NCBI GenBank assembly: GCA_002683785.1
Contig: NYUB01000042.1
Coordinates: forward strand, 22,080-37,409
Reading direction: 5' to 3'
Length of the DNA: 15,330 nt
DNA from: Deltaproteobacteria bacterium
Lineage (GTDB): Bacteria > SAR324 > NAC60-12
A program made the translations under genes and the position numbers. Shown in pieces: positions 711-9,966 of the stretch (positions are counted from its first letter, which is position 1; each line of letters begins with the position of its first letter). The notes under the pieces are model-generated. The model worked only from the letters and a program-made list of their open reading frames with translations. It did no database searches and had not been told where the DNA came from.

Positions 711-2420
711 ATGAACGGATCCCAGATCATCGTTGAAGCCCTTCGCAGGCATGGTGTGGAATACCTCTTTGGTTATCCCGGAGGAGCCTGCATGCCAATT
801 TTTGATGCATTGGTGGATGCCCCTGAAATCAAAATCATTTTGGTACGACATGAACAGGGAGGGACCCACATGGCAGATGGTTACGCGCGTGCCACGGGCA
901 AACCCGGGGTGGTGCTTGTCACTTCCGGACCTGGCGCCACCAACACCGTCACCGGTTTGCTGACGGCCCTGATGGACTCGGTTCCGATGGTGGTGCTAAC
1001 GGGACAGACGATCACCCCGAATCTTGGCAAGGACGCTTTCCAGGAAGCCGATGTCTTTGGAGTCACCATGCCGGTAGTCAAACACAGCTACCTGGTGCGC
1101 GAGGCCAATGATTTACCACGCATCTTGAATGAAGCTTTCCATCTCGCGACCTCCGGAAGACCCGGCCCTGTTTTGGTGGATCTTCCGAAAGACGTGGCTT
1201 CCAATGAATGCGAGACGGATTTCACCGATGAATTTCACCTGCCAGGCTATGCTCCTCCAGCACGGGGCTCAGCGGACGATCTGGAAAAAGCTGCGCAATT
1301 GATTTCCTCATCCCGCAAACCCTTATTATATGTAGGAGCAGGAGCAATCATTTCCCAGGCATCACGTCAGGTCATCGGGTTTGCCGAAAAACTTCAGGCA
1401 CCGGTCACCACCACCCTGCTCGGCAAGGGAGCTTTCCCGGAAAACCACCCGCTTTCCGTGGGCATGCTTGGCATGCATGGAACCGCTTATGCCAACAAAA
1501 CGGTTGTGGACTGCGATCTTATCATGGCCATCGGTGCACGTTGGGACGACAGAATTACCGGTAAGGTAAGTGAATTCTGCAAGGATGCGATCAAGATTCA
1601 TATCGATATCGATCCTGCCGAATTCGGAAAAATCATCGATCCTGATCTCTCGATTGCAGGGGACGCCAAACTGATTCTGGAAGATCTTATGCCACTGGTC
1701 GATAAGCTCGACAGCCAATCCTGGCTGAAACAGATTGATCGCTGGAAGAATAAATACCCGTTGAAGTTCCCCAAACGCGGGGGATTACGTGCCCAGCAAA
1801 TTCTCAAGGAACTTGACCGTCTCACAGAATCGCAGGCCATCATCACCACGGACGTCGGGCAGCATCAAATGTGGACTGCACAGTTCTGCAAAACCAATGA
1901 GGAGCGAAAATGGCTCTCGAGTGGGGGTGCGGGGACCATGGGTTATGGACTGCCTTCTGCCATCGGGGCACAGTTAGGCCGCCCCAATGATCTTGTGATT
2001 GCCGTTGTTGGAGACGGAGGATTTCAAATGACCATGCCAGAACTTGCAACAGCCGCCATACACAAACTTCCCATCAAAGTTTTGATCATCAACAACAAAT
2101 ATCTTGGAATGGTCAGGCAGTGGCAGCAACTGTTTTTTGACAACCGCGAAAGTGGTGTCGACATGATGGGCAACCCCGACTTTGTCAAAATCGGTGAAGC
2201 CTATGGGATCAAAGGCTTTCATCTCAGACGCACCGGAGATATCACCAAGGTCCTTCAAAAAGCCCTGGACTACAATGAAGGCCCGTGCATCATCGAAGCT
2301 GAAGTGGTAAAAAGCGACAACGTCTTTCCTATGATTCCTGCTGGAGCAGCTGTATCAGAAATGATCATTGAGGAACCACCTTCTGACAAAAAACTAGCAA
2401 AACCTGTAGGAAGTACCTGA
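711..2420 (+). CDS. ilvB: Acetolactate synthase (acetohydroxyacid synthase) large catalytic subunit, ThDP/FAD-dependent
   Basis: 569-aa ORF with an N-terminus typical of AHAS (MNGSQIIVEALRRHGVEYLFGYPGGACMPIFDAL). It has a ThDP-binding GDGGFQM motif and a length typical for IlvB/IlvI. It is followed 90 bp downstream by the ACT-domain small subunit. Confidence 0.93.
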   Translation: MNGSQIIVEALRRHGVEYLFGYPGGACMPIFDALVDAPEIKIILVRHEQGGTHMADGYARATGKPGVVLVTSGPGATNTVTGLLTALMDSVPMVVLTGQTITPNLGKDAFQEADVFGVTMPVVKHSYLVREANDLPRILNEAFHLATSGRPGPVLVDLPKDVASNECETDFTDEFHLPGYAPPARGSADDLEKAAQLISSSRKPLLYVGAGAIISQASRQVIGFAEKLQAPVTTTLLGKGAFPENHPLSVGMLGMHGTAYANKTVVDCDLIMAIGARWDDRITGKVSEFCKDAIKIHIDIDPAEFGKIIDPDLSIAGDAKLILEDLMPLVDKLDSQSWLKQIDRWKNKYPLKFPKRGGLRAQQILKELDRLTESQAIITTDVGQHQMWTAQFCKTNEERKWLSSGGAGTMGYGLPSAIGAQLGRPNDLVIAVVGDGGFQMTMPELATAAIHKLPIKVLIINNKYLGMVRQWQQLFFDNRESGVDMMGNPDFVKIGEAYGIKGFHLRRTGDITKVLQKALDYNEGPCIIEAEVVKSDNVFPMIPAGAAVSEMIIEEPPSDKKLAKPVGST

Positions 2421-2452
2421 ACAGCGTTTTCAAACAGCATCCTGAACATCGC
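2415..2452. repeat. Imperfect 12-bp direct repeat (a/t)CCTGAACA(g/t)CG, present twice 25 bp apart and straddling the ilvB stop codon
   Basis: Read directly from the sequence: acctgaacagcg at 2415..2426 and tcctgaacatcg at 2440..2451, in the ilvB-ilvN spacer. Confidence 0.3.
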
Positions 2453-2510
2453 ATATTATTTTTAAGTCAATTTATTAGTCATCAGCCTCAGACAATCAAA
2501 CGGATCCAAG

Positions 2511-3017
2511 ATGAAAGATACTCCCAATGAAAAAGGTTTTTCTGTCAGCCTTTTCGTCAACAATAAACCCGGGGTTTTGGTCCGGATCGCTCAAACTTTT
2601 GCGCGAAGGGGTTACAACATCGACTCTTTGGTCGTATCAAGCGCTCATGACTCAAGATATTCTCGAATCACTGTAGTCTTCCAGGGGGATCATGAAAACG
2701 TGGACCAGATTCTTAGACAATTAAACAAACTGATTGACGTGGTCCATGCCGTCCAACATGGAACTGATACTTCTGTAGATCGGGAAATGACATTATTTAA
2801 GGTAGGAGTGAAACCCGACAAAAGGGCTGAGGTTTTTCAGATCATCGATGTTTTTCGTGCAAAAACGGTAGACATCACCGATGAATCGATCATCGTTGAA
2901 ACCACAGGAAGTTCCAACAAGATCGATGCATTGGAACGCATGTTGAGTTCCATCGGTTTGCTTGAGATGGTGCGGTCTGGAAAACTAATGATGGCCCGGG
3001 GGCTTGATCCCACCTGA
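2511..3017 (+). CDS. ilvN: Acetolactate synthase small regulatory subunit (ACT domain)
   Basis: 168-aa ORF. The N-terminal ACT-domain signature (SVSLFVNNKPGVLVRIAQTFARRGYNIDSLVV) and its length match IlvN/IlvH. It sits immediately downstream of ilvB on the same strand. Confidence 0.9.
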   Translation: MKDTPNEKGFSVSLFVNNKPGVLVRIAQTFARRGYNIDSLVVSSAHDSRYSRITVVFQGDHENVDQILRQLNKLIDVVHAVQHGTDTSVDREMTLFKVGVKPDKRAEVFQIIDVFRAKTVDITDESIIVETTGSSNKIDALERMLSSIGLLEMVRSGKLMMARGLDPT

Positions 3018-3020
3018 TTC

Positions 3021-3036
3021 AAAGGTAAGCCCCTTT
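3021..3036. terminator. Weak bidirectional hairpin between the convergent ilvN and peroxiredoxin genes
   Basis: AAAGG (3021..3025) pairs with CCTTT (3032..3036), with loop TAAGCC, and is followed by T residues on the + strand and A/T residues on the - strand. The stem is only 5 bp, so confidence is low. Confidence 0.25.
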
Positions 3037-3051
3037 TAGATTTAAAACTTT

Positions 3052-3510
3052 TCAGAACAACTGTCTGCAAATTTCTGCCAGCTCGTTTGCATAACGCCGG
3101 CCCCCAGGTTCCACAGCCTCGGAATAACGGACGATCCCCTGCTTGTCGATGATCACAGTCGAGCGAATGGAGTACCCCTTTTCTTCACTGTAAACCCCAT
3201 AAGCCTTTGCCATTTGTCCTTTGGGATGCCAGTCGCTGAGAAGCGGAAAGTTCACTCCTCCCAGGGAGACTGCCCAGTTTTTGTGGGAATGTTTGGTATC
3301 AATGCTTACACCCAGAACCTGGGTGTCGAGATCCTCAAAAAGCCCTAAATTGGCTTCCAGATCAGGGATCTCCTTGCTTCAGGTACCCGTCCAATCCAAG
3401 GGATAAAAAATCAGCATCACATTTTTGTGGCCCTGAAAATCAGAAAAGGAAACCACCCCATCAGAGGTTTCCAGCGAAAAATCAGGGGCCTGGCTACCAG
3501 TTTCAATCAT
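3052..3510 (-). CDS. Selenocysteine-containing peroxiredoxin of the BCP/PrxQ (AhpC/TSA) family. The in-frame TGA at 3379..3381 (codon 44) is predicted to encode Sec at the peroxidatic position.
   Basis: The minus strand from ATG 3510 to TGA 3052 is a single 153-codon frame whose only interruption is one TGA. The conceptual product is MIETGSQAPDFSLETSDGVVSFSDFQGHKNVMLIFYPLDWTGT-U-SKEIPDLEANLGLFEDLDTQVLGVSIDTKHSHKNWAVSLGGVNFPLLSDWHPKGQMAKAYGVYSEEKGYSIRSTVIIDKQGIVRYSEAVEPGGRRYANELAEICRQLF. The TGA falls exactly where Prx proteins carry the peroxidatic Cys of the PxxxTxxC motif (compare BCP FYPKDDTPGC-TTE). Both halves show peroxiredoxin-fold conservation (APDF..L, GISxDxxxSHKxW, FPLLSD, AYGV). 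The ORF track reports only the 67-aa C-terminal fragment 3052..3255. Confidence 0.72.
3343..3367 (-). promoter_or_regulatory. Candidate bacterial SECIS-like mRNA hairpin starting 11 nt downstream of the UGA
   Basis: The mRNA reads UGA-AGCAAGGAGAU-CCCUGAUCUGGAAGCCAAUUUAGGG. CCCUGA pairs with UUAGGG (6 bp including one G-U pair). An internal loop is followed by an upper UGG/CCA stem with an AAG apical loop. Total length is 25 nt, beginning 11 nt after the UGA, which is the canonical spacing of the E. coli fdhF-type SECIS. Confidence 0.35.
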
Positions 3511-3679
3511 ATCCAACTTTTTGAAATTGTATTAATTTTGAACAATGAATGTTGAAGAAGCATTAGCATTCCTTAAGCATGGGGGATTTGCAAGATTTCC
3601 TAAAGGCATAGTTCCTACCAATCAAAACAATAGGAAAAAACAATTGGATCTGTATTTTTTCAATCGTTACGATAATGCT

Positions 3680-3694
3680 GAACTGAATCAGTTC
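3680..3694. promoter_or_regulatory. Perfect 7-1-7 palindrome GAACTGA-A-TCAGTTC, a candidate operator overlapping the rbr promoter/TSS
   Basis: Read directly from the sequence. It lies 4 nt downstream of a GATAAT -10-like hexamer (3671..3676) and 33 nt upstream of the rbr ATG. The 7-1-7 architecture matches the arrangement of Fur/PerR-family boxes, although the half-site sequence differs. Confidence 0.35.
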
Positions 3695-3726
3695 GATTAA
3701 ATCATCATTCCATTAAAAGGAGTCAA

Positions 3727-4146
3727 ATGCCTGAATTAAAAGGAACTCAAACCCACCAAAATTTAAAAGATGCTTTTGCCGGTGAATCCCAAGCCAACCG
3801 TCGCTATCTCTATTATGCAAAGCAGGCAGATGTCGAAGGATATCCGGAAATTGCTTCAAATTTCAGGGAAACTGCTGAAGGAGAGACCGGTCATGCACAT
3901 GGCCACCTGGATTACATCAAACAAGTTGGCGATCCTGCCAATGGCATGCCCATTGGAGAATCTACCGACAACTTGAAGGCTGCCATCGCCGGTGAAACTC
4001 ATGAATATACTGACATGTATCCTGGAATGGCAAAAACCGCACGTGATGAGGGCTTCAATGAAATTGCTGACTGGTTCGAAACCCTGGCAAAAGCGGAAAA
4101 ATCTCACGCCGGACGTTTTCAGCAAATGCTCGATACCATCAGCTGA
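3727..4146 (+). CDS. rbr: Rubrerythrin-family diiron peroxidase lacking the C-terminal rubredoxin domain (sulerythrin-like, 139 aa)
   Basis: All rubrerythrin diiron ligands appear in the expected spacing: E20 (ESQANRRY), E53xxH56 (EGETGHAH), E94xxE97 (GETHEY), E128xxH131 (AEKSHAG). No CxxC...CxxC rubredoxin module is present. A strong AAGGAG ribosome-binding site lies 4 nt before the ATG. Confidence 0.85.
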
Positions 4147-4204
4147 TTCCCTTTAATACCGCCCTGTAACATACGGGAATCAGAAACTCTTTGATTCCCG
4201 TATG
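4143..4204 (+). promoter_or_regulatory. Pair of mutually exclusive RNA hairpins between rbr and the Fe-S protein gene (possible terminator or attenuator)
   Basis: Hairpin A pairs CTGATTCCC (4143..4151, overlapping the rbr stop) with GGGAATCAG (4175..4183). Hairpin B pairs CATACGGGAATC (4170..4181) with GATTCCCGTATG (4193..4204), a perfect 12-bp stem with an 11-nt loop. The two share the GGGAATC segment and so cannot form together. No U-tract follows hairpin B immediately (the T-run starts about 16 nt later). Confidence 0.35.
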
Positions 4205-4261
4205 ATTCTGATATAAATAGTTTATTTTGTCATAAATATAATCATTTTTTTTAAGGTATTC

Positions 4262-5620
4262 ATGGAGGCCAAAAAGGACCGGATCTCGTATCTTCCAAGC
4301 AATGGAATGAGTTATGACCCGGAAGAACCCAAGTACTGGGACAGTAGTGCCCTGAAGCAGGAAATTGATCGTGCTTATGAAATCTGCCATGGATGCCGCA
4401 TGTGTTTCAAATACTGCGATTCCTTTCCCAACCTCTTCAAATTGTTGGACGAGCAGTATGACGGGAAAGTTTCAGAATTGAAGGACATGGATATTGAACA
4501 TGTGATGGATGCCTGTTTTCAATGCAAACTATGTGAAGTTCAATGCCCCTACACGCCCCGAGACGGTCATGAGTTTCAGCTCGATTTTCCCAAGCTGGTC
4601 CACCGCTACAATGCCCAAAAAGCAAAGACACGAGAAAAGCCCTTACGCGACCGGGTTCTGGGAAACCCCGATGGGAGCGCGAAGCTGGCCCGCATGTCCT
4701 TCGGAATGGCGAACAAGATGAATCGTGTCAAAATCCATAGGGTTTTAATGGAAAAGGTACTCGGCATCCACCGTGACAAGGATCTTCCAGATTTCTGTGC
4801 GCAAACCTTTGAAAAACAGGCAGAATCCAAAGGCATGATTTCCAAGGAAAATCCAGAAACCGTATTGTTCCAAACCTGTTACGTTCAGAACAACGAACCT
4901 GAAATCGGGTTTGACACCCTCGAAGTTCTCAAACACAACGAGGTGGAATGTGGATGTGTCAAGGGCCTTCAATGCTGCGGCATGCCTTCATGGGAACAGG
5001 GAGATCTGGAAAGCCTGCGGAAACAGGCGAAGCATAATCTGGATCTGCTCATGCCTCACGTGAACCGAGGCTCGAAAATCCTCGCACTCAACCCGACCTG
5101 CTCCATGATGATGAAACGGGAATATTCTGAGTTGCTGGAGGGCAATGACCGTGAATCTGCACAAAAGCTCGCAGAAGCGGTTCAAAACCCAACAGAATAC
5201 CTCTGGGATATCCGTAAAGAGGAACGTTTTAAACGAGATTTCAAAAGCACACCTGGTCAAAAGGTCGCGTACCATGCCCCATGCCATCTGCGTACGCAAG
5301 GAGCCGGATTTCGAGGCAGAGATCTGTTGAAACTGATTCCAGATCTTAAACCTCAGTTGACCATGGAATGCTGTGGGCATGATGGAACGTATGCGATGAA
5401 AACCGAGTCCTTCGAAGCCTCGATCCGGATTGGAGAAAAAGCATTCAGCAGCATGAAAAACACCGGTGCCGAAGTCTGGGCTACCGACTGTCCACTGGCA
5501 GCAATTCAGTTTGGCCAGCATGCCGGAAGAAAACCGATGCATCCGATGAGCATCCTCGCAAGGGCTTATCAGGAGGATGGATTTCCAACCAAAATAGAGC
5601 CTTCGGAAAATAAAGAATGA
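4262..5620 (+). CDS. Iron-sulfur oxidoreductase with an N-terminal 2x[4Fe-4S] ferredoxin domain and two C-terminal CCG cysteine-rich domains (HdrD / GlpC / LutA-like)
   Basis: 452 aa. There are two CxxCxxCxxxCP motifs (CHGCRMCFKYCDSFP; CFQCKLCEVQCPYTP). Two CCG motifs follow (ECGCVKGLQCCGMP; MECCGHDGTY). An AAGG ribosome-binding site lies 8 nt upstream. The stop overlaps the next gene's start in an ATGA arrangement. Confidence 0.85.
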   Translation: MEAKKDRISYLPSNGMSYDPEEPKYWDSSALKQEIDRAYEICHGCRMCFKYCDSFPNLFKLLDEQYDGKVSELKDMDIEHVMDACFQCKLCEVQCPYTPRDGHEFQLDFPKLVHRYNAQKAKTREKPLRDRVLGNPDGSAKLARMSFGMANKMNRVKIHRVLMEKVLGIHRDKDLPDFCAQTFEKQAESKGMISKENPETVLFQTCYVQNNEPEIGFDTLEVLKHNEVECGCVKGLQCCGMPSWEQGDLESLRKQAKHNLDLLMPHVNRGSKILALNPTCSMMMKREYSELLEGNDRESAQKLAEAVQNPTEYLWDIRKEERFKRDFKSTPGQKVAYHAPCHLRTQGAGFRGRDLLKLIPDLKPQLTMECCGHDGTYAMKTESFEASIRIGEKAFSSMKNTGAEVWATDCPLAAIQFGQHAGRKPMHPMSILARAYQEDGFPTKIEPSENKE

Positions 5621-6171
5621 AACCTGTCCAACGTGAAGAAATCCTGGATTACGTCACCTATGGTGAAAAGAGGAATGAAATCCAGCTTTCGGTCTTGAAG
5701 CAAAAAGAACCAAGAAGAATCCATCTCGGAGAATACCTGACCTTCCTTTTCGAAAACACGGAAACGATCCGTTACCAGATTCAGGAAATGATGCGGGTCG
5801 AACAGATCGTCAAGGAAGAGGCGATCCAGCATGAAATAAAAACCTACAACGAATTGATTGGTGAGGAAGGAGAACTCGGATGCGTGCTCCTGATCGAAAT
5901 TGCAGATGCTCAAATCCGACCACAGAAACTCCGAGAATGGCTGGGACTTCAGGAAAAAATTTACCTGGTCCTCGATTCAGGAGAACGGGTTTATGCCGAG
6001 TGGGATAAACGTCAGATCGATGATGAAAAACTATCTTCGGTACAGTATCTCAAATTTGACACTTCAGGCAGAACACCCAAAGGGATTGGTGTGGATCATC
6101 CCGAATTGAAGTGCGAAATGGATCTGTCCAAGGAACAAAGAGGAGCCCTGAACCACGATCTTCAGGGATAA
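5617..6171 (+). CDS. DUF3501-like protein (uncharacterised family usually encoded next to HdrD/GlpC-like Fe-S proteins); family assignment from memory
   Basis: 184-aa ORF translationally coupled (ATGA overlap) to the upstream CCG-domain Fe-S protein. Its size and the conserved-looking core (LGCVLLIEIADAQIRPQKLREWLGLQEKIYLVLDSGERVYAEWD) fit my recollection of DUF3501. An HMM search is needed to confirm. Confidence 0.6.
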   Translation: MKPVQREEILDYVTYGEKRNEIQLSVLKQKEPRRIHLGEYLTFLFENTETIRYQIQEMMRVEQIVKEEAIQHEIKTYNELIGEEGELGCVLLIEIADAQIRPQKLREWLGLQEKIYLVLDSGERVYAEWDKRQIDDEKLSSVQYLKFDTSGRTPKGIGVDHPELKCEMDLSKEQRGALNHDLQG

Positions 6172-6179
6172 ATTATTGG

Positions 6180-6764
6180 TCAGGGTTTCAACAGAAGATT
6201 CACCGTCTCAATCATTTCAGGTGTGTCAACTTTGCTGCTGAACATTTTCCGAATCCTAGCCTTACGGTCCATCAGGTAGACGTAACCGGTGTGGGTTACA
6301 AGGTAACCGATCGCCGACTTGTTCACTTCATCCTTCATGAAAAAAGAACCAAACTTTTTGGCAACCTGCTGCACTTCCTCAAAGGGCGCGTGCAATCCTA
6401 CAAATCCAGGATTGAAGAATTCCAGATAGGTTTTCATCTTCTCCAGACTGTCACGTTCAGGATCGACACTGATAAACAGAACCTGGATCAGCTCGTTTTT
6501 TGGATCCAGTTTTTGAACAGCCTGCTTGATCACGGTCAACGTTGTAGGGCAAACGTCTGGACAGGACGTATAACCAAAATAGATAAGCAGTAGTTTCCCC
6601 TCAAAATCCTTAAGGCTGACGGTCTTTCCGAGAGTGCTATCCATCTCAAAGTCGCCTCCGAGGGTATCATAAACCGGAAGGACTTCCGCTTGGAGCATCC
6701 CTAACCGGCAACCGAATATAAAAAGAAACAGGAACGTGGGCAGGAATGGGTGCTTCTTCAGCAT
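6180..6764 (-). CDS. sco1: SCO1/SenC family copper chaperone (thioredoxin-fold, cytochrome c oxidase CuA assembly), with N-terminal signal/anchor
   Basis: 194 aa with a hydrophobic N-terminus. It carries the hallmark CxxxCP motif (YFGYTSCPDVCPTTL) and a conserved downstream His (GYLVTHTGYVYLMD). Confidence 0.85.
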   Translation of the reverse strand: MLKKHPFLPTFLFLFIFGCRLGMLQAEVLPVYDTLGGDFEMDSTLGKTVSLKDFEGKLLLIYFGYTSCPDVCPTTLTVIKQAVQKLDPKNELIQVLFISVDPERDSLEKMKTYLEFFNPGFVGLHAPFEEVQQVAKKFGSFFMKDEVNKSAIGYLVTHTGYVYLMDRKARIRKMFSSKVDTPEMIETVNLLLKP

Positions 6765-6897
6765 ATTTGAATCAAATGATACGATTTAGCTTTCATCACA
6801 GCAAAGCCTGCAGCCATGGGGATAAGACTCATGCCCGGATGAACCAGGCTGAGGAGATATAGGAACCGCTATAATTTTACTGATTCTTTGGGGCGGT

Positions 6898-7941
6898 TTA
6901 TTGCTTCGAGGCTGCCTTCTGCAGTTCGTTGAGAGGAAGAAATGGGAGAAGGTTTTTGCCAACCTGCTCATCAGCAATCACCTTGTTCACTTTGGGCATG
7001 ATCACCTCCATCGTTTCAAGCATGATCCGCTCCCGGGTGACCTCTTTGGCTTTACGATATTCCTCGTAAATTGAATTGAAACGCTTGGCTTTACCTTCTG
7101 CAATCAGGGTGGTCTTCTCTGCGTACCCCTCTGCTGCATTGATGATCTGTTTTGCTTCCCCTCGAGCCTGAGGGATGAGATTGTTCATATACCCTTCCGC
7201 TTCGTTGATCAGTTTTTCACGATCTTCCCTTGCGCTGACAACGTCTTTGAATGCTTCCTTAACCTGGTCCGGAGGGTGGACATCCTGAAGTTTGACGTTT
7301 CCGATCAAGATCCCCGAATTATAACCCTTCATAGTCTCCTGAAGCAGGTTTGCAGTAGTCGATTCAATTTTTGCTTTCCCGACGGTCAGGGCTTCTGTCA
7401 CAGTGGTATCCCCGATCACTTCACGCATCGCCGATTCCGCAGCTGATTTCACGGTCTCGTCCGGATTCGTGAGATTATAGAGGTAATCTTCGATCTGTGC
7501 GATTTTGTACTGAACGGTGAACTGCACATCGACGATGTTTTCATCACCCGTCAGCATCAACGATTCTTTCTTCACCTGACGATATTTTGCCGGAGGCCCC
7601 GGATCGATGGTGCGAAATCCTATCTCGATCCGTCTGACTGCGGTCACAGGTTCGATTTGAACGGTCTCGATCGGGCTTGGCAGATGGTAATGCGGACCTG
7701 GCCCGACGATATCATAGACCTCCCCGAAACGTTTGATTACCGCCTGTTCCTGAGGATCGACGATGAAGATTCCAGTAGCGAGCCAGACCACAGCCAGGAC
7801 CACCAGGATCAACAGACTCAAGTTTTTCTGGGGCATTCCGAATTTGAATTTTCCCTGAAGATTGTTGAGCAACTCATCAATGTCAGGGGTGGGGTTGTTT
7901 TTGTCCCACGGAGATTTATTGGGTGGCTTGTTCCATTCCAT
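6898..7941 (-). CDS. hflK: FtsH protease modulator HflK (SPFH/band-7 domain membrane protein)
   Basis: 347 aa. The N-terminus (MEWNKPPNKSPWDKNNPTPDIDELL) is HflK-like and is followed by a single TM and an SPFH domain. The C-terminal LLPFLPLNEL motif is also present. No hflC gene follows it. Confidence 0.82.
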   Translation of the reverse strand: MEWNKPPNKSPWDKNNPTPDIDELLNNLQGKFKFGMPQKNLSLLILVVLAVVWLATGIFIVDPQEQAVIKRFGEVYDIVGPGPHYHLPSPIETVQIEPVTAVRRIEIGFRTIDPGPPAKYRQVKKESLMLTGDENIVDVQFTVQYKIAQIEDYLYNLTNPDETVKSAAESAMREVIGDTTVTEALTVGKAKIESTTANLLQETMKGYNSGILIGNVKLQDVHPPDQVKEAFKDVVSAREDREKLINEAEGYMNNLIPQARGEAKQIINAAEGYAEKTTLIAEGKAKRFNSIYEEYRKAKEVTRERIMLETMEVIMPKVNKVIADEQVGKNLLPFLPLNELQKAASKQ

Positions 7942-8114
7942 AGTGAAGATCTGGTGAGGTTGGCACTCCTAAATTGATTTGATCACCGCCTTTTCTGGTT
8001 CGTCGATGGAGTCTGAGGCGTCTAGAATTGTGTCAAAAGGTTTATTTTATAAGATAAGAAGCAAGGCCCGCAGGTACAAGCAGAATCCGCCTGGAATTCG
8101 CTCCGGGACAAGCC

Positions 8115-9032
8115 TCATCCCGTCAGTACATCGTAGCCTTCTGCAGTGACATGAATCGTATGCTCCCACTGGGCGGAAAGTGAACCGTCCACCGTGACTG
8201 CCGTCCAACCATCCCCGAGGATCCTGCTTTCGGGACGTCCCATGTTGATCATCGGTTCAATGGTAAATACCATGTCCTGCTGCATGATGTCTCCGCTGCC
8301 TGTTGAGCCATAATGAAGGATCTGGGGTGCTTCATGAAATTCCACACCTACCCCATGACCGCAGAAATCACGGACCACCGAATATCCAAGGCTTTCGGCA
8401 TGGTTTTGGATCGCATACCCGATGTCTCCGGTCCTACCCCCCGGGCGAACCTGGGCGATTCCCAGTTCCAGGCATTTCTTGGTTTCCTCAACAAGTTCCC
8501 TGGTAGAATCCGGGATCTCGCCTATGATGAACATCCGGCTCGCGTCTCCGAAATAACCGTCAAGGTTGCAGGTCACGTCGACGTTGATGATGTCTCCGTC
8601 CGCCAGGATACGTTCATTGGGGATACCATGGCAGATGACCTCGTTGATCGACGTACAGACACTTTTAGGAAAAGGTTTCCCTCTTGGCCCCTTGCCACGT
8701 CCATAATTGAGCGGTGCAGGATCAGCTCCCTGAGCCAAAGTCTCTTCGTGTACCCATTCGTTGATCTGGTTGGTAGTCACTCCAACCTGGATCCGTTCTT
8801 CAAGCATATCCAGCAGATCCCGGGTCAGTATGCTGCTTCTGCGGATTCCCTCGAGCTGCTCCTCGGTCTTGATCATAATCCGGCGAGGGTTTTGAGGTAC
8901 CGGGTTCTTTGGCCGTGCAGGTGGCTGGTCCTTGCCGAGGTGGCATTTCTTGAATTTTTTCCCGCTTCCACACCAGCAGGGGTCATTCCGTGAAAGTTCT
9001 TTCAGGGACTCAGGGCCTTCCTTCATCGACAT
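8115..9032 (-). CDS. map: Type I methionine aminopeptidase with an N-terminal SEC-C motif zinc finger extension
   Basis: 305 aa. The MetAP catalytic core has metal ligands in context (DGDIINVDVTCNLDGYFGD, HGVGVEFHE, FTIEPM, EHT). It is preceded by about 55 aa containing CWCGSGKKFKKCH, a SEC-C motif. The second ATG (9026) has a better GGAG spacing, so the start may be 9026 rather than 9032. Confidence 0.9.
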   Translation of the reverse strand: MSMKEGPESLKELSRNDPCWCGSGKKFKKCHLGKDQPPARPKNPVPQNPRRIMIKTEEQLEGIRRSSILTRDLLDMLEERIQVGVTTNQINEWVHEETLAQGADPAPLNYGRGKGPRGKPFPKSVCTSINEVICHGIPNERILADGDIINVDVTCNLDGYFGDASRMFIIGEIPDSTRELVEETKKCLELGIAQVRPGGRTGDIGYAIQNHAESLGYSVVRDFCGHGVGVEFHEAPQILHYGSTGSGDIMQQDMVFTIEPMINMGRPESRILGDGWTAVTVDGSLSAQWEHTIHVTAEGYDVLTG

Positions 9033-9117
9033 GCTCCGTCATTTCGTGTGGGATTATGATTTCTTCCATCCATTGCTAAGATCGAATGCTGCACAGGCAG
9101 TTTGACAAATACATGAT

Positions 9118-9966
9118 TCATTTCAAAAACGAAAACATCCGGCCGAGCTGATAGCCGTCGAAAAAACTCTCACGGGGATCATGATTCCAGTAGATCATCT
9201 GTCCCTTGCCCACGACGCTTGAAGCCTCGACAAAACCCCAGAAGCGGCTATCGGCACTGTTGTATCGGTTGTCTCCCATCACAAATATCTTACCCTCTGG
9301 AATCCGAACTGGACCGAAATTGCTGACCGGATAAGCGGCCGCCCCCGCCCCCATCACTTTGCGCTGCTCCGGGTCAAAATAAGCATAGCTTTCCTTGAAC
9401 AACTGGTCATTGATGTAGACCTGGTCCTTGCGGATTTCCAGAGTTTCTCCAGGCATGCCGATGACCCTTTTGATGTAATCAATGTCCGGATCCCGGGGAT
9501 AGGGAAAGATGACGATGTCCCCCCGGTTAATCGGCTTTTCGAAAAGCTTGCTGCCGGTGAGGGGAATCGGAGAGCCATACGAATACATGCTAGCAAAGAT
9601 GTGATCCCCGATTTGAATCGTTGGAATCATGGATCCTGAGGGAATCTGGAATGGGGCAAACAGATAAGTCCGTACAATGGTCGCAACCACCAGAGCGAAT
9701 ATGATCGCCTCGACCCACTCGCGCAGGGTTTTGTTCCTGATCCAGCGGTCGAGCCGGAAATAGCCTTTAGCTACTTTCAGCAACTGTTTCTCACGGGCCA
9801 TGATTTCATCCGCGCTTTCCAGCCTGCTCACCCGCTTCATAAAAGTTTCCGGGGATTCAAAAAAAACATCCTCCATCGAACGAAGTTCGGTGACCGCCTT
9901 TTCACTCAACCCTTTCTTCTTCAGAGTTCCTATGGATTTGCTGGACAATTTGTAGCTGATAATCAT
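9118..9966 (-). CDS. lepB: Signal peptidase I (LepB) with an approximately 75-aa N-terminal cytoplasmic extension
   Basis: S26-family motifs are present: the catalytic Ser in FQIPSGSMIPTI, KRVIGMPGE, GDNRYNSADSRFWGFV. A single TM (EAIIFALVVATIVRTYLF) sits at about residues 85-105. The start codon is uncertain; internal Met codons (such as the one in MAREKQLLKV) could be the true start. Confidence 0.85.
   Translation of the reverse strand: MIISYKLSSKSIGTLKKKGLSEKAVTELRSMEDVFFESPETFMKRVSRLESADEIMAREKQLLKVAKGYFRLDRWIRNKTLREWVEAIIFALVVATIVRTYLFAPFQIPSGSMIPTIQIGDHIFASMYSYGSPIPLTGSKLFEKPINRGDIVIFPYPRDPDIDYIKRVIGMPGETLEIRKDQVYINDQLFKESYAYFDPEQRKVMGAGAAAYPVSNFGPVRIPEGKIFVMGDNRYNSADSRFWGFVEASSVVGKGQMIYWNHDPRESFFDGYQLGRMFSFLK

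Follow-up and report, generated by a model that had tools for sequence, protein, structure and literature searches.

A standard copy of the aerobic-type rubrerythrin system beside a selenocysteine peroxiredoxin gene in an uncultured SAR324-like marine bacterium

Gene trio, junctions and conservation

The window analyzed here, a stretch of 15,330 nucleotides from an uncultured SAR324-like marine bacterium, contains three genes on the + strand: rbr (3727-4146), encoding an aerobic-type rubredoxin-less rubrerythrin of 139 aa (PF02915) with a complete diiron site; rfo (4262-5620), encoding a GlpC/HdrD-like Fe-S protein of 452 aa in which two 4Fe-4S motifs are combined with two CCG domains; and duf3501 (5617-6171), encoding a protein of 184 aa (PF12007). 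The products are referred to below as RBR, RFO and DUF3501. As the original prediction had pointed out, rfo ends and duf3501 begins within an ATGA (5617-5620, + strand) that combines the stop codon of the one with the start codon of the other and by which, judged from the sequence, the two genes are translationally coupled. Of 71 related loci, 26 have this 4-nt overlap and 8 others an overlap of 1 nt (34/71 in total). The genes had been described as co-directional with short or overlapping junctions, which applies to their common strand and to the ATGA but not to the junction between rbr and rfo, where the spacer is 115 nt long.

Within this spacer, RNA folding and structure conservation identified a 15-bp stem-loop (4170-4204, + strand). 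The fold of positions 4140-4265 reaches -30.1 kcal/mol (z -3.87), a stability attained by none of 200 shuffled sequences, and of 64 related loci, 45 have significant structure (z < -2) in the equivalent spacer, compared with 1 of 75 coding controls. The stem-loop is likely a partial terminator or a stabilizer of the transcript 3' end. Because of the spacer and the stem-loop, rbr may form a separate or attenuated transcription unit, and its co-transcription with rfo-duf3501 may be doubted.

To place the trio in context, 80 DUF3501 loci from GTDB species genomes were surveyed, 75 of which had enough upstream DNA. The genes rbr, rfo and duf3501 occur in the same order and on the same strand in 71 of these 75 untruncated loci, among them members of the Acidobacteriota, Myxococcota, SAR324, Marinimicrobia, Krumholzibacteriota and other phyla, and the gene order of the Burkholderia trio matches that of the window. 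Locus L014 has the genes for RBR and DUF3501 without a nearby rfo, and in three planctomycete loci DUF3501 stands by itself within 6 kb. DUF3501 loci thus mostly have rubrerythrin and RFO genes as neighbors, and the expected functional linkage of the three genes is borne out by their conserved order and strand; that they are one conserved functional unit is strongly supported. The 115-nt spacer with its stem-loop is the one feature that would fit a coincidental adjacency of three functionally unrelated genes, but this explanation was ruled out by the constant order and strand across many phyla, and it is also at odds with the published co-occurrence of the genes (PMC5114695) and their co-induction in Burkholderia (PMC4175613).

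The cluster was defined and its members named RBR, DUF3501 and RFO by Cardenas, Quatrini and Holmes in 2016 as the "aerobic-type rubrerythrin system" (PMC5114695), and that article already proposes RFO as the substitute for the missing rubredoxin domain. The hypothesis was restated by Gray et al. in 2020 (PMC7050145) and again in 2025 (bioRxiv 10.1101/2025.06.01.657255). The trio had been called an uncharacterized module, which holds for its biochemistry but not for the cluster and the RFO hypothesis. The 2016 article (PMC5114695) reports all three genes in 185 of 4461 genomes, DUF3501 and RFO without RBR in only about 1-2 of the 4461, and RBR and DUF3501 without a nearby RFO in 25 genomes (Thermoproteales and some deltaproteobacteria); it further describes an RFO unlinked from RBR-DUF3501 in Hydrogenobacter and Thermocrinis and an RFO-DUF3501 fusion in Nitrosomonas. 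The aerobic-type rubrerythrin system was later traced to the mitochondria of many protists.

The window locus is a standard, ordinary copy of this known system. It shares with the published one (PMC5114695 and PMC7050145) the three families, the common gene order and the rubredoxin-less RBR, and the published RFO likewise belongs to COG0247, has a CCG domain and is most closely related to GlpC. Nothing essential is different; the SAR324-like copy adds a divergent selenocysteine (Sec) peroxiredoxin and an OxyR-type box. In the passages of these two articles that were consulted, we found no description of the rbr-rfo stem-loop, of the PerR/OxyR association or of the four-Cys CCG sites reported here.

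Peroxide sensors and the divergent peroxiredoxin

The gene divergent from rbr (3052-3510, - strand) encodes a selenocysteine peroxiredoxin of the AhpC/TSA type, as recognized from its translation and from NCBIfam PrxU/AhpC-like matches. Its in-frame TGA (3379-3381) takes the position of the peroxidatic Cys in the motif PLDWTGT-U-SKEIP. As had been predicted for this gene, a Sec codon is indicated by conservation: a TGA is present at the same position in five related loci (L003, L004, L052, L067 and L070), and distant homologues in L047 and L076 have a Cys there. A weak SECIS-like hairpin starts 10 nt past the TGA (-19.4 kcal/mol, with a z of only -1.72). The peroxide context and the divergent Sec-peroxiredoxin agree with the description of the locus as a compact peroxide-defense island, but such an island is lineage-specific, since a peroxiredoxin gene is adjacent to the trio in only 13 of the 80 loci and only members of the SAR324-like group have the Sec form.

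An OxyR-type operator, ATAG-N7-CAAT-N7-ATAG-N7-CAAT, is located in the divergent promoter region between the peroxiredoxin gene and rbr (3608-3644, no strand assigned). In a search with the pattern ATAG-N7-CTAT-N7-ATAG-N7-CTAT allowing up to 2 or 3 mismatches, this box was the sole match in the window at either threshold, and none of 200 shuffled sequences gave a match at 2 mismatches. Across 840 kb of related loci there are eight distinct box matches, every one of them no more than 300 nt upstream of rbr. Three of the eight box-bearing loci also encode an OxyR-like regulator; the window contains no oxyR gene.

The most frequent neighbors of the trio in the 80 loci are PerR-like regulators (28/80), peroxiredoxins (13/80) and OxyR-like regulators (7/80), and where a PerR-like gene is present it is directly upstream in 27 of 28 cases. 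In total, 35 of the 80 loci have an adjacent PerR-like or OxyR-like gene; including five loci with the box only, a peroxide-sensor gene or an OxyR-type box is found beside the trio in 40 of the 80 loci. At the level of sequence, this arrangement makes it likely that the trio is under peroxide-sensor control, and in the window the regulator is probably OxyR, acting through a box common to rbr and the divergent Sec-peroxiredoxin gene. Experimental support for a peroxide response comes from the Burkholderia cluster, where H2O2 co-induces bpss1837-1839 and sigmaE is required for this effect (PMC4175613). Together with the sensors and boxes and the peroxidase activity of ferriperoxin (PMC3317640), this co-induction gives good support to the peroxide-defense context that had been proposed. 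Two kinds of finding that had been named in advance as speaking against the proposal were looked into, and neither went against it.

RBR, RFO and DUF3501

The RBR protein matches PF02915 with an E value of 4.6e-31. All seven diiron ligands (E20, E53-x2-H56, E90, E93 and E124-x2-H127) are present and invariant in 70 orthologues, and since not one of its 139 residues is a cysteine, RBR has no rubredoxin domain, as originally described. Its match to NCBIfam RuberyRbr is confined to profile positions 1-145 of 194 and scores 141.7 bits against a cutoff of 200. The closest sequence relatives are solved single-domain members, namely the B. pseudomallei Rbr (BpRbr; PDB 4DI0/9ONM, E 7e-66) and sulerythrin (1J30, E 4e-54), while classical Rbr is matched with an E value of 1e-26 (1B71). 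Like RBR, the ferriperoxin of H. thermophilus, the sulerythrin of S. tokodaii and BpRbr are single-domain diiron four-helix bundles of ~140 aa, and the literature on these three proteins describes a domain-swapped dimer and hydroperoxide reductase activity. Ferriperoxin is a proven hydroperoxide reductase, dependent on NADPH and FNR in vitro without RFO (PMC3317640), and Hydrogenobacter cannot grow aerobically without it; BpRbr is promiscuous in its binding of Fe, Mn and Co (bioRxiv 10.1101/2025.06.01.657255). RBR itself is very probably a hydroperoxide reductase with a diiron site, of the ferriperoxin/sulerythrin/BpRbr type.

Classical Rbr (D. vulgaris, P. furiosus) shares the diiron peroxidase core and likewise needs electrons delivered one at a time to the diiron site, but its C-terminal rubredoxin domain is fed by NAD(P)H:rubredoxin oxidoreductase (NROR) and rubredoxin. 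Since RBR has neither such a domain nor a Cys, electron entry must use a separate protein; no rubredoxin or NROR gene was found near the trio. Generic donors encoded elsewhere (FNR/ferredoxin, rubredoxin) might reduce RBR in vivo, with RFO and DUF3501 being regulatory or redox-sensing, for example by gating RBR to the respiratory redox state. Ferriperoxin does function with NADPH and FNR, the assay having included neither RFO nor DUF3501 (PMC3317640), RFO is unlinked from RBR-DUF3501 in Hydrogenobacter and Thermocrinis (PMC5114695), and a redox-sensor role was at one time suggested for Rv0338c, the EtfD homologue of M. tuberculosis, going by the title of a paper. However, ferriperoxin assayed with FNR has a Km for H2O2 that exceeds the 35 μM of P. 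furiosus Rbr more than 40-fold, so that the FNR system may not be physiological. Moreover, the strict co-occurrence and co-induction of the trio fit a stoichiometric machine better than a sensor, and profile searches of the trio proteins revealed no DNA-binding or signaling domain. We therefore regard reduction by generic donors as highly doubtful.

In RFO, the CCG family PF02754 is matched in two stretches (E 5.4e-14), in addition to a 4Fe-4S dicluster domain. The two [4Fe-4S] motifs (CX2CX2CX3C at residues 42-52 and 85-95) and the two CCG motifs (238-240 and 370-372) are those that had been attributed to the 452-aa protein, and no transmembrane segment is present. Across 70 orthologues, 15 Cys, including all 8 ferredoxin Cys, and six His (H103, H114, H338, H342, H373 and H427) are invariant, and C371, a Ser in Burkholderia, is conserved in 65. 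Each CCG domain has four conserved Cys, C206/C238/C239/C280 and C341/C370/C371/C410, and in 70/70 orthologues these domains are without the second Cys in the CXXC that ends the HdrB-type motif. An HdrB/HdrD-type five-Cys site (CXnCCGXmCXXC), the kind that binds a noncubane [4Fe-4S] cluster, was thus rejected on sequence grounds: HdrB has five Cys per CCG site, RFO four and a nearby invariant His.

The best NCBIfam match of RFO is GlpC, which aligns over the full length but remains below the cutoff (NF008369, 259.8 vs. 278 bits), and TIGR03379 scores 194.3 bits against a cutoff of 279.9. With scores below the cutoffs and no GlpA/GlpB partner genes, an identity as GlpC was rejected, and the "GlpC" labels on public RFO homologues, which have no recurrent dehydrogenase neighbor, are therefore probably over-annotations. 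A Foldseek search with the AF2 model of RFO (pLDDT 87, pTM 0.88) retrieved LutA (9A6L, TM 0.80), EtfD (9OJN, 471 columns) and HdrB (5ODC/7BKB). HdrD, GlpC and EtfD resemble RFO in combining a CCG domain with two [4Fe-4S] motifs, but EtfD and HdrDE have a membrane or haem-b domain, of which RFO has neither, and RFO differs from HdrD, GlpC, EtfD, LutA and HdrB in having RBR and DUF3501 as partners. The clusters D1-D4 of EtfD form a wire that carries electrons from a protein donor, showing that an RFO-like module is able to act as a pure electron wire. A corresponding role of RFO is favored by the alignment of its model to EtfD over 471 columns, and also by the genes beside the trio, which in the 80 loci include no recurrent gene for a dehydrogenase (GlpA/B, GlcD/E, LutB/C, HdrA) or for FNR.

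The CCG-domain proteins of Hdr and TfrB are catalytic. RFO-DUF3501 might accordingly turn over a substrate of its own, for example as a thiol/disulfide or small-molecule oxidoreductase comparable to HdrD, TfrB or GlpC, with RBR as an accessory that removes peroxide made by, or harmful to, the Fe-S clusters of RFO. The full-length match just under the GlpC cutoff would agree with this, and the stem-loop suggests that rbr and rfo-duf3501 are separately expressible. However, the partner genes of such enzymes are not recurrent near the trio, the regulators adjoining it are peroxide sensors, and DUF3501 and RFO hardly ever occur without RBR (PMC5114695). In addition, the RFO sites do not have the fifth Cys of the catalytic HdrB sites, and in EtfD, CCG clusters whose coordination is altered have been described as lacking a catalytic role. 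That RFO-DUF3501 has a substrate of its own is, in our view, quite unlikely.

The family assignment of DUF3501 proved correct (PF12007, E 3.8e-50). Its fold, a β-sandwich with a helical hairpin, is that of PDB 3FJV, a B. pseudomallei K96243 protein (YP_111841.1) with only 30% identity to the window protein, deposited as a DUF3501 "novel protein of unknown function"; we found no paper on 3FJV in the literature searched, and the deposited structure carries no functional annotation. Other fold matches share 5-13% identity and represent generic Ig-like sandwiches. DUF3501 has no conserved Cys and no redox-cofactor motif, and carboxylates and Tyr are abundant in its conserved core (E46, E57, E62 and Y77). 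Metagenomic proteins were found in which DUF3501 is fused to a peroxiredoxin (P0132) or to a ferritin-like domain (P0126).

Such a core would suit a maturation or repair factor that, with reducing power from RFO, serves the RBR diiron site (Fe(II) selection or insertion, re-reduction, re-metallation) instead of a reductase of the catalytic cycle. The pairing of DUF3501 with RBR even without RFO (L014; PMC5114695) and the fusion to a ferritin-like domain point in the same direction, and the promiscuity of BpRbr for Fe, Mn and Co makes metal selection a real problem. On the other hand, the fold matches are only generic, the fusion partner in P0132 has no metal site to mature, and a 452-aa wire with four clusters far exceeds the need of a chaperone. 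That no bound metal appears in the deposition title of 3FJV is weak evidence against such a factor. A maturation role of DUF3501 therefore appears unlikely.

Electron delivery to RBR

The best explanation, which we consider probable, is that the locus encodes the standard RBR, RFO and DUF3501 system, in which RFO would pass electrons to RBR and DUF3501 would serve as an adaptor. RFO would be a soluble or peripheral HdrD/EtfD-like electron wire, in which two cubane [4Fe-4S] clusters come after two CCG-domain clusters. At the CCG end it would take electrons from a housekeeping donor encoded outside the cluster, most likely a quinol or a thiol or protein donor; the neighborhood of the trio indicates no donor candidate. 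From RFO the electrons would reach the RBR diiron site in place of the missing rubredoxin domain. DUF3501 could be a cofactor-less docking adaptor that holds RBR on RFO and would be made 1:1 with RFO through translational coupling. The conserved rbr/stem-loop/rfo-duf3501 layout implies an excess of RBR over its partners, and the stem-loop after rbr may allow RBR to accumulate in excess of its reductase.

The adaptor role is favored by the absence of a conserved Cys in DUF3501, its coupling or fusion to RFO, its pairing with RBR where RFO is absent, and its fusions to peroxiredoxin and ferritin-like domains. For a physical complex, the RFO-DUF3501 fusion of Nitrosomonas and these metagenomic fusions are indirect evidence. 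The reduction of ferriperoxin in vitro by NADPH and FNR without RFO (PMC3317640) counts against RFO as the reductase, and given the 25 genomes and L014 with RBR and DUF3501 but no nearby RFO, RFO is not a universal reductase.

The re-reduction of rubredoxin-less rubrerythrins in aerobes poses a genuine question, for which RFO and DUF3501 are the obvious candidates. Both the question and the RFO hypothesis are some ten years old, and the window locus gives no new handle on them. The context added here consists of the consistent PerR- or OxyR-type placement of the trio, the rbr/stem-loop/rfo-duf3501 layout, an EtfD/HdrD-like RFO with reduced-Cys CCG sites, and a DUF3501 without a cofactor motif that is sometimes fused to a peroxiredoxin. 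It sharpens the design of biochemical experiments and leaves the overall picture unchanged.

As a tentative and more far-reaching possibility, RFO-DUF3501 could be a dedicated rubrerythrin reductase whose variant four-Cys/His CCG clusters receive electrons from the quinol pool of respiration or from a thiol couple, which would make RBR-RFO-DUF3501 a hydroperoxide reductase linked to the respiratory chain, with DUF3501 as a cofactor-less docking module that also recruits thiol peroxidases. If true, such a respiratory-chain-linked hydroperoxide reductase would be common to aerobic bacteria, archaea and the mitochondria of protists. The recruitment of thiol peroxidases by DUF3501 is suggested by the DUF3501-peroxiredoxin fusion and by the frequent peroxiredoxin neighbors of the trio.

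The trio and its place in a known system

The three open reading frames named in the original prediction were recovered on a single strand at exactly the positions given there. The first, rbr (3727-4146, plus strand), encodes a rubrerythrin (RBR) of 139 aa (PF02915, E 4.6e-31) in which sequence motifs reveal the full set of seven diiron ligands (E20, E53, H56, E90, E93, E124, and H127). Since RBR does not contain any cysteine, it has no rubredoxin domain, so that both features ascribed to this protein were borne out. The second gene, rfo (4262-5620, plus strand), encodes an Fe-S protein (RFO) of 452 aa with a 4Fe-4S dicluster domain and two CCG stretches (PF02754), and the third, duf3501 (5617-6171, plus strand), a protein of 184 aa (PF12007, E 3.8e-50). 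The predicted ATGA overlap of rfo and duf3501 is present, but a spacer of 115 nt separates rbr from rfo, and the description of the junctions as short or overlapping thus applies to the rfo/duf3501 junction only.

The module had been put forward as uncharacterized, but the cluster has been described since 2016, when Cardenas, Quatrini and Holmes defined an 'aerobic-type' rubrerythrin lineage without rubredoxin domain (PMC5114695). [quoted passage not shown] The name 'aerobic-type rubrerythrin system' was used by Gray et al. (2020), who report that many protists have the complete set of proteins and target it to mitochondria (PMC7050145). As the idea that RFO stands in for rubredoxin has already been published, the original hypothesis is reasonable but not new. 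The part of the claim that stands concerns biochemistry: a literature search found none for RFO or DUF3501, and in a 2025 preprint on structures of BpRbr, the rubrerythrin of Burkholderia pseudomallei, the operon partners are still hypothetical electron donors (bioRxiv 10.1101/2025.06.01.657255). The trio in the window is a SAR324-like member of this already known system, and its interpretation is plausible and previously published. The stem-loop, the association with PerR or OxyR, the four-cysteine CCG sites, and the fusion of DUF3501 to a peroxiredoxin described below are incremental and unsurprising, yet they are helpful for designing a decisive experiment.

Conservation of the gene linkage

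A DUF3501 alignment was scanned against one genome per GTDB species, and the 80 best loci (52-65% identity) were taken; they come from Acidobacteriota, Myxococcota, SAR324, Planctomycetota, Marinimicrobia, Krumholzibacteriota, and other lineages. Upstream DNA was long enough for assessment in 75 loci, and in 71 of these rbr, rfo and duf3501 follow each other in this order on a single strand. DUF3501/CCG pairs therefore do not occur mostly without a rubrerythrin, an outcome that would have refuted the proposal. The overlap between rfo and duf3501 measures 4 nt in 26 related loci and 1 nt in eight. RBR and DUF3501 without RFO were found in one of the 75 loci (L014), and three planctomycetotal loci (L011, L023, and L041) carry DUF3501 alone, with neither RBR nor RFO within 6 kb. 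Against this background, a merely coincidental adjacency of the three genes is next to impossible. Read from sequence alone, the upstream neighbor in two of the three planctomycetotal loci is DUF72-like. L014 also has a second ORF upstream (171 aa), with two ExxH motifs in its sequence and a ferritin-like look, which gave no NCBIfam match.

The same gene order is found in Burkholderia cenocepacia, where the identity amounts to 72% for RBR, 34% for RFO, and 31% for DUF3501. In a plasmid collection, DUF3501 was encountered only on Burkholderia megareplicons, which are without annotation in the plasmid table and were used solely to confirm gene order. Across the phyla represented among the 80 loci, identity to the window proteins is 74-91% for RBR and 52-72% for RFO and DUF3501. 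The high conservation of RBR suggests that this protein is very strongly constrained, that the cluster has spread horizontally, or both.

RFO and DUF3501 as candidate partners of RBR

RFO carries CX2CX2CX3C motifs at residues 42-52 and 85-95, with all eight ferredoxin cysteines kept, and CCG motifs at 238-240 and 370-372. The two [4Fe-4S] motifs and two CCG domains originally assigned to it are therefore present, with the correction that only four cysteines are conserved per CCG domain (C206/C238/C239/C280 and C341/C370/C371/C410, together with the invariant H338, H342, and H373), whereas the HdrB-type motif has five. Burkholderia RFO has a serine at the position of C371. The best NCBIfam match of RFO is GlpC, at 259.8 bits versus a cutoff of 278, and GlpA/B neighbors are absent from related loci; the public labels of many orthologues, 'glycerol-3-phosphate dehydrogenase subunit C' or 'heterodisulfide reductase-related', are therefore likely over-annotations. 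No hydrophobic segment was found in the RFO sequence, searching PDB sequences with RFO returned nothing, and an identical RFO (P0271) is encoded on a 38-kb ENA metagenome contig. The AF2 model of RFO (pLDDT 87, pTM 0.88) superposes on LutA (TM 0.80), on EtfD of Mycobacterium smegmatis (471 columns), and on HdrB. In EtfD, two CCG domains and two ferredoxin motifs make up a four-cluster wire that takes electrons from a protein donor; its CCG clusters of altered coordination are held to be non-catalytic by the authors, who see in this a possible adaptation to aerobic conditions (PMC13083937). It is quite unlikely that RFO and DUF3501 form an independent catalyst with RBR as its protector.

For DUF3501, a structure from B. 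pseudomallei, PDB 3FJV (match E 1.9e-20), is solved but unpublished; literature searches on 3FJV and on PF12007 returned nothing relevant. Among 92 diverse members, the conserved core comprises Y15, R19, K30, R33, R34, G38, F45, E46, T50, Q54, E57, E62, and Y77, and includes neither a conserved cysteine nor a His-rich site, which makes a built-in redox cofactor unlikely. A role of DUF3501 and RFO in metallation or repair is an unlikely alternative.

The assignment of RBR as a predicted diiron hydroperoxide reductase is well supported. Within the RBR lineage, ferriperoxin of Hydrogenobacter has been proven to reduce hydroperoxides in an NADPH/FNR-dependent manner, and it is essential for aerobic growth (PMC3317640). 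For the whole, we moderately favor a scheme in which RFO would act as an HdrD/EtfD-like electron wire, fed with a quinol, thiol, or protein donor of housekeeping origin from outside the cluster; RFO would stand in for the absent rubredoxin domain by reducing the diiron site of RBR, and DUF3501, acting as an adaptor without a cofactor, would dock RBR to RFO. When the flanking ORFs of all 80 loci were clustered, no recurring dehydrogenase, FNR, or rubredoxin gene was found among them. Two observations count against RFO as the reductase, namely that RBR and DUF3501 pairs occur without RFO and that FNR supports ferriperoxin turnover in vitro (PMC3317640). A further alternative, in which RBR is reduced generically and RFO and DUF3501 form a sensor, is likewise quite unlikely.

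Among the best 150 of 1788 DUF3501 representatives (50% clustering), P0132 joins DUF3501 to a complete AhpC/TSA peroxiredoxin, P0126 is a fusion with a ferritin-like domain, and a recurrent class of ~300 aa has a C-terminal extension of ~105 aa without Pfam match; P0195, P0199, P0243, and P0252 are DUF3501 proteins listed with these. No natural RFO-DUF3501 fusion was found in the 80 loci, these 150 representatives, or the best 120 RFO homologues. An apparent RBR-DUF3501 fusion, P0125 (309 aa), was rejected as a probable frameshift or assembly artefact because its RBR part ends before the last ExxH helix, and the similar P0270 has the same look.

Control region, spacer and flanking genes

In the clustering of flanking ORFs, the commonest neighbor was a Fur-family PerR/Irr-like regulator (28 of 80 loci), whose gene immediately precedes rbr and shares its strand in all but one of these 28 cases; peroxiredoxins were found in 13 loci and OxyR-like LysR regulators in seven. 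The window encodes neither a PerR-like nor an OxyR-like regulator. A motif match to an OxyR-type box with four elements (ATAG-N7-CAAT-N7-ATAG-N7-CAAT) lies at 3608-3644, between rbr and the divergent gene of a selenocysteine peroxiredoxin (Sec-Prx). It is the sole match in the window (0 of 200 shuffles), and 840 kb of related loci contain eight distinct matches, all within the 300 nt that precede rbr; among the loci with a box, three encode an OxyR-like protein and none is of the PerR type. These in silico data are consistent with peroxide-responsive control of the trio and agree with the transcriptome of B. pseudomallei, in which bpss1837 (hypothetical), bpss1838 (ferredoxin), and bpss1839 (rubrerythrin) appear in the same list as induced by oxidative stress and sigmaE-dependent (PMC4175613). 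That the three genes form one unit under peroxide-sensor control is well supported. An inverted-repeat search of 3480-3740 returned none. A perfect 7-1-7 palindrome, GAACTGAATCAGTTC, at 3680-3694, located 33-47 nt ahead of the rbr start codon and beside a GATAAT -10-like hexamer, was set aside: it is neither conserved among relatives nor statistically unusual.

The 115-nt spacer (-30.1 kcal/mol, z -3.9) contains a perfect 15-bp stem-loop at 4170-4204. Of the spacers between rbr and rfo at 64 loci, 45 are significantly structured (z < -2), versus one of 75 control segments within rfo, and a stem-loop 3' of rbr is a conserved design feature. Several of these spacers carry a U-tract and resemble canonical intrinsic terminators (L036 and L027; L004 less clearly). 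The hairpin of the window was missed by the terminator scan, and no U-tract directly follows it; we therefore refer to it as a stem-loop and not as a proven terminator. We infer that partial termination or stabilization of the 3' end would raise expression of rbr above that of the tightly coupled rfo and duf3501, whose products would be equimolar. A sigma-70 promoter scan of 3000-6900 is uninformative, as it yielded no plus-strand promoter and its counts were at shuffle level. A perfect TATAAT (4237-4242), paired with a poor -35 element, is a possible but uncertain internal promoter of rfo. Nothing was detected when the window was scanned for Rfam families and tRNAs.

The Sec-Prx gene (3052-3510, minus strand) has an in-frame TGA (3379-3381) at the position of the peroxidatic cysteine (PLDWTGT-U-SKEIP), followed by a weak SECIS-like hairpin (z -1.7). 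This TGA is kept in five SAR324-like relatives, and distant homologues have cysteine. Convergent with duf3501, with stop codons 8 nt apart, lies a gene for an SCO1/SenC copper-chaperone-like thioredoxin-fold protein (6180-6764, minus strand) with a CPDVC motif and an N-terminal hydrophobic segment. None of the 80 related loci has such a gene 3' of duf3501, and in some SAR324 relatives Sec-Prx occupies this site. The upstream ilvB-ilvN (711-3017) and downstream hflK-map-lepB (6898-9966) genes show synteny with SAR324 MAGs, their proteins being 62-79% identical (SAR324-like loci L052, L067, L070, L003, and L004). An uncultured SAR324-like bacterium of marine origin is therefore the most likely source of the window. 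Judged by sequence reading only, the methionine aminopeptidase-like ORF (8115-9032, minus strand) starts with a SEC-C-type zinc motif, DPCWCGSGKKFKKCH.
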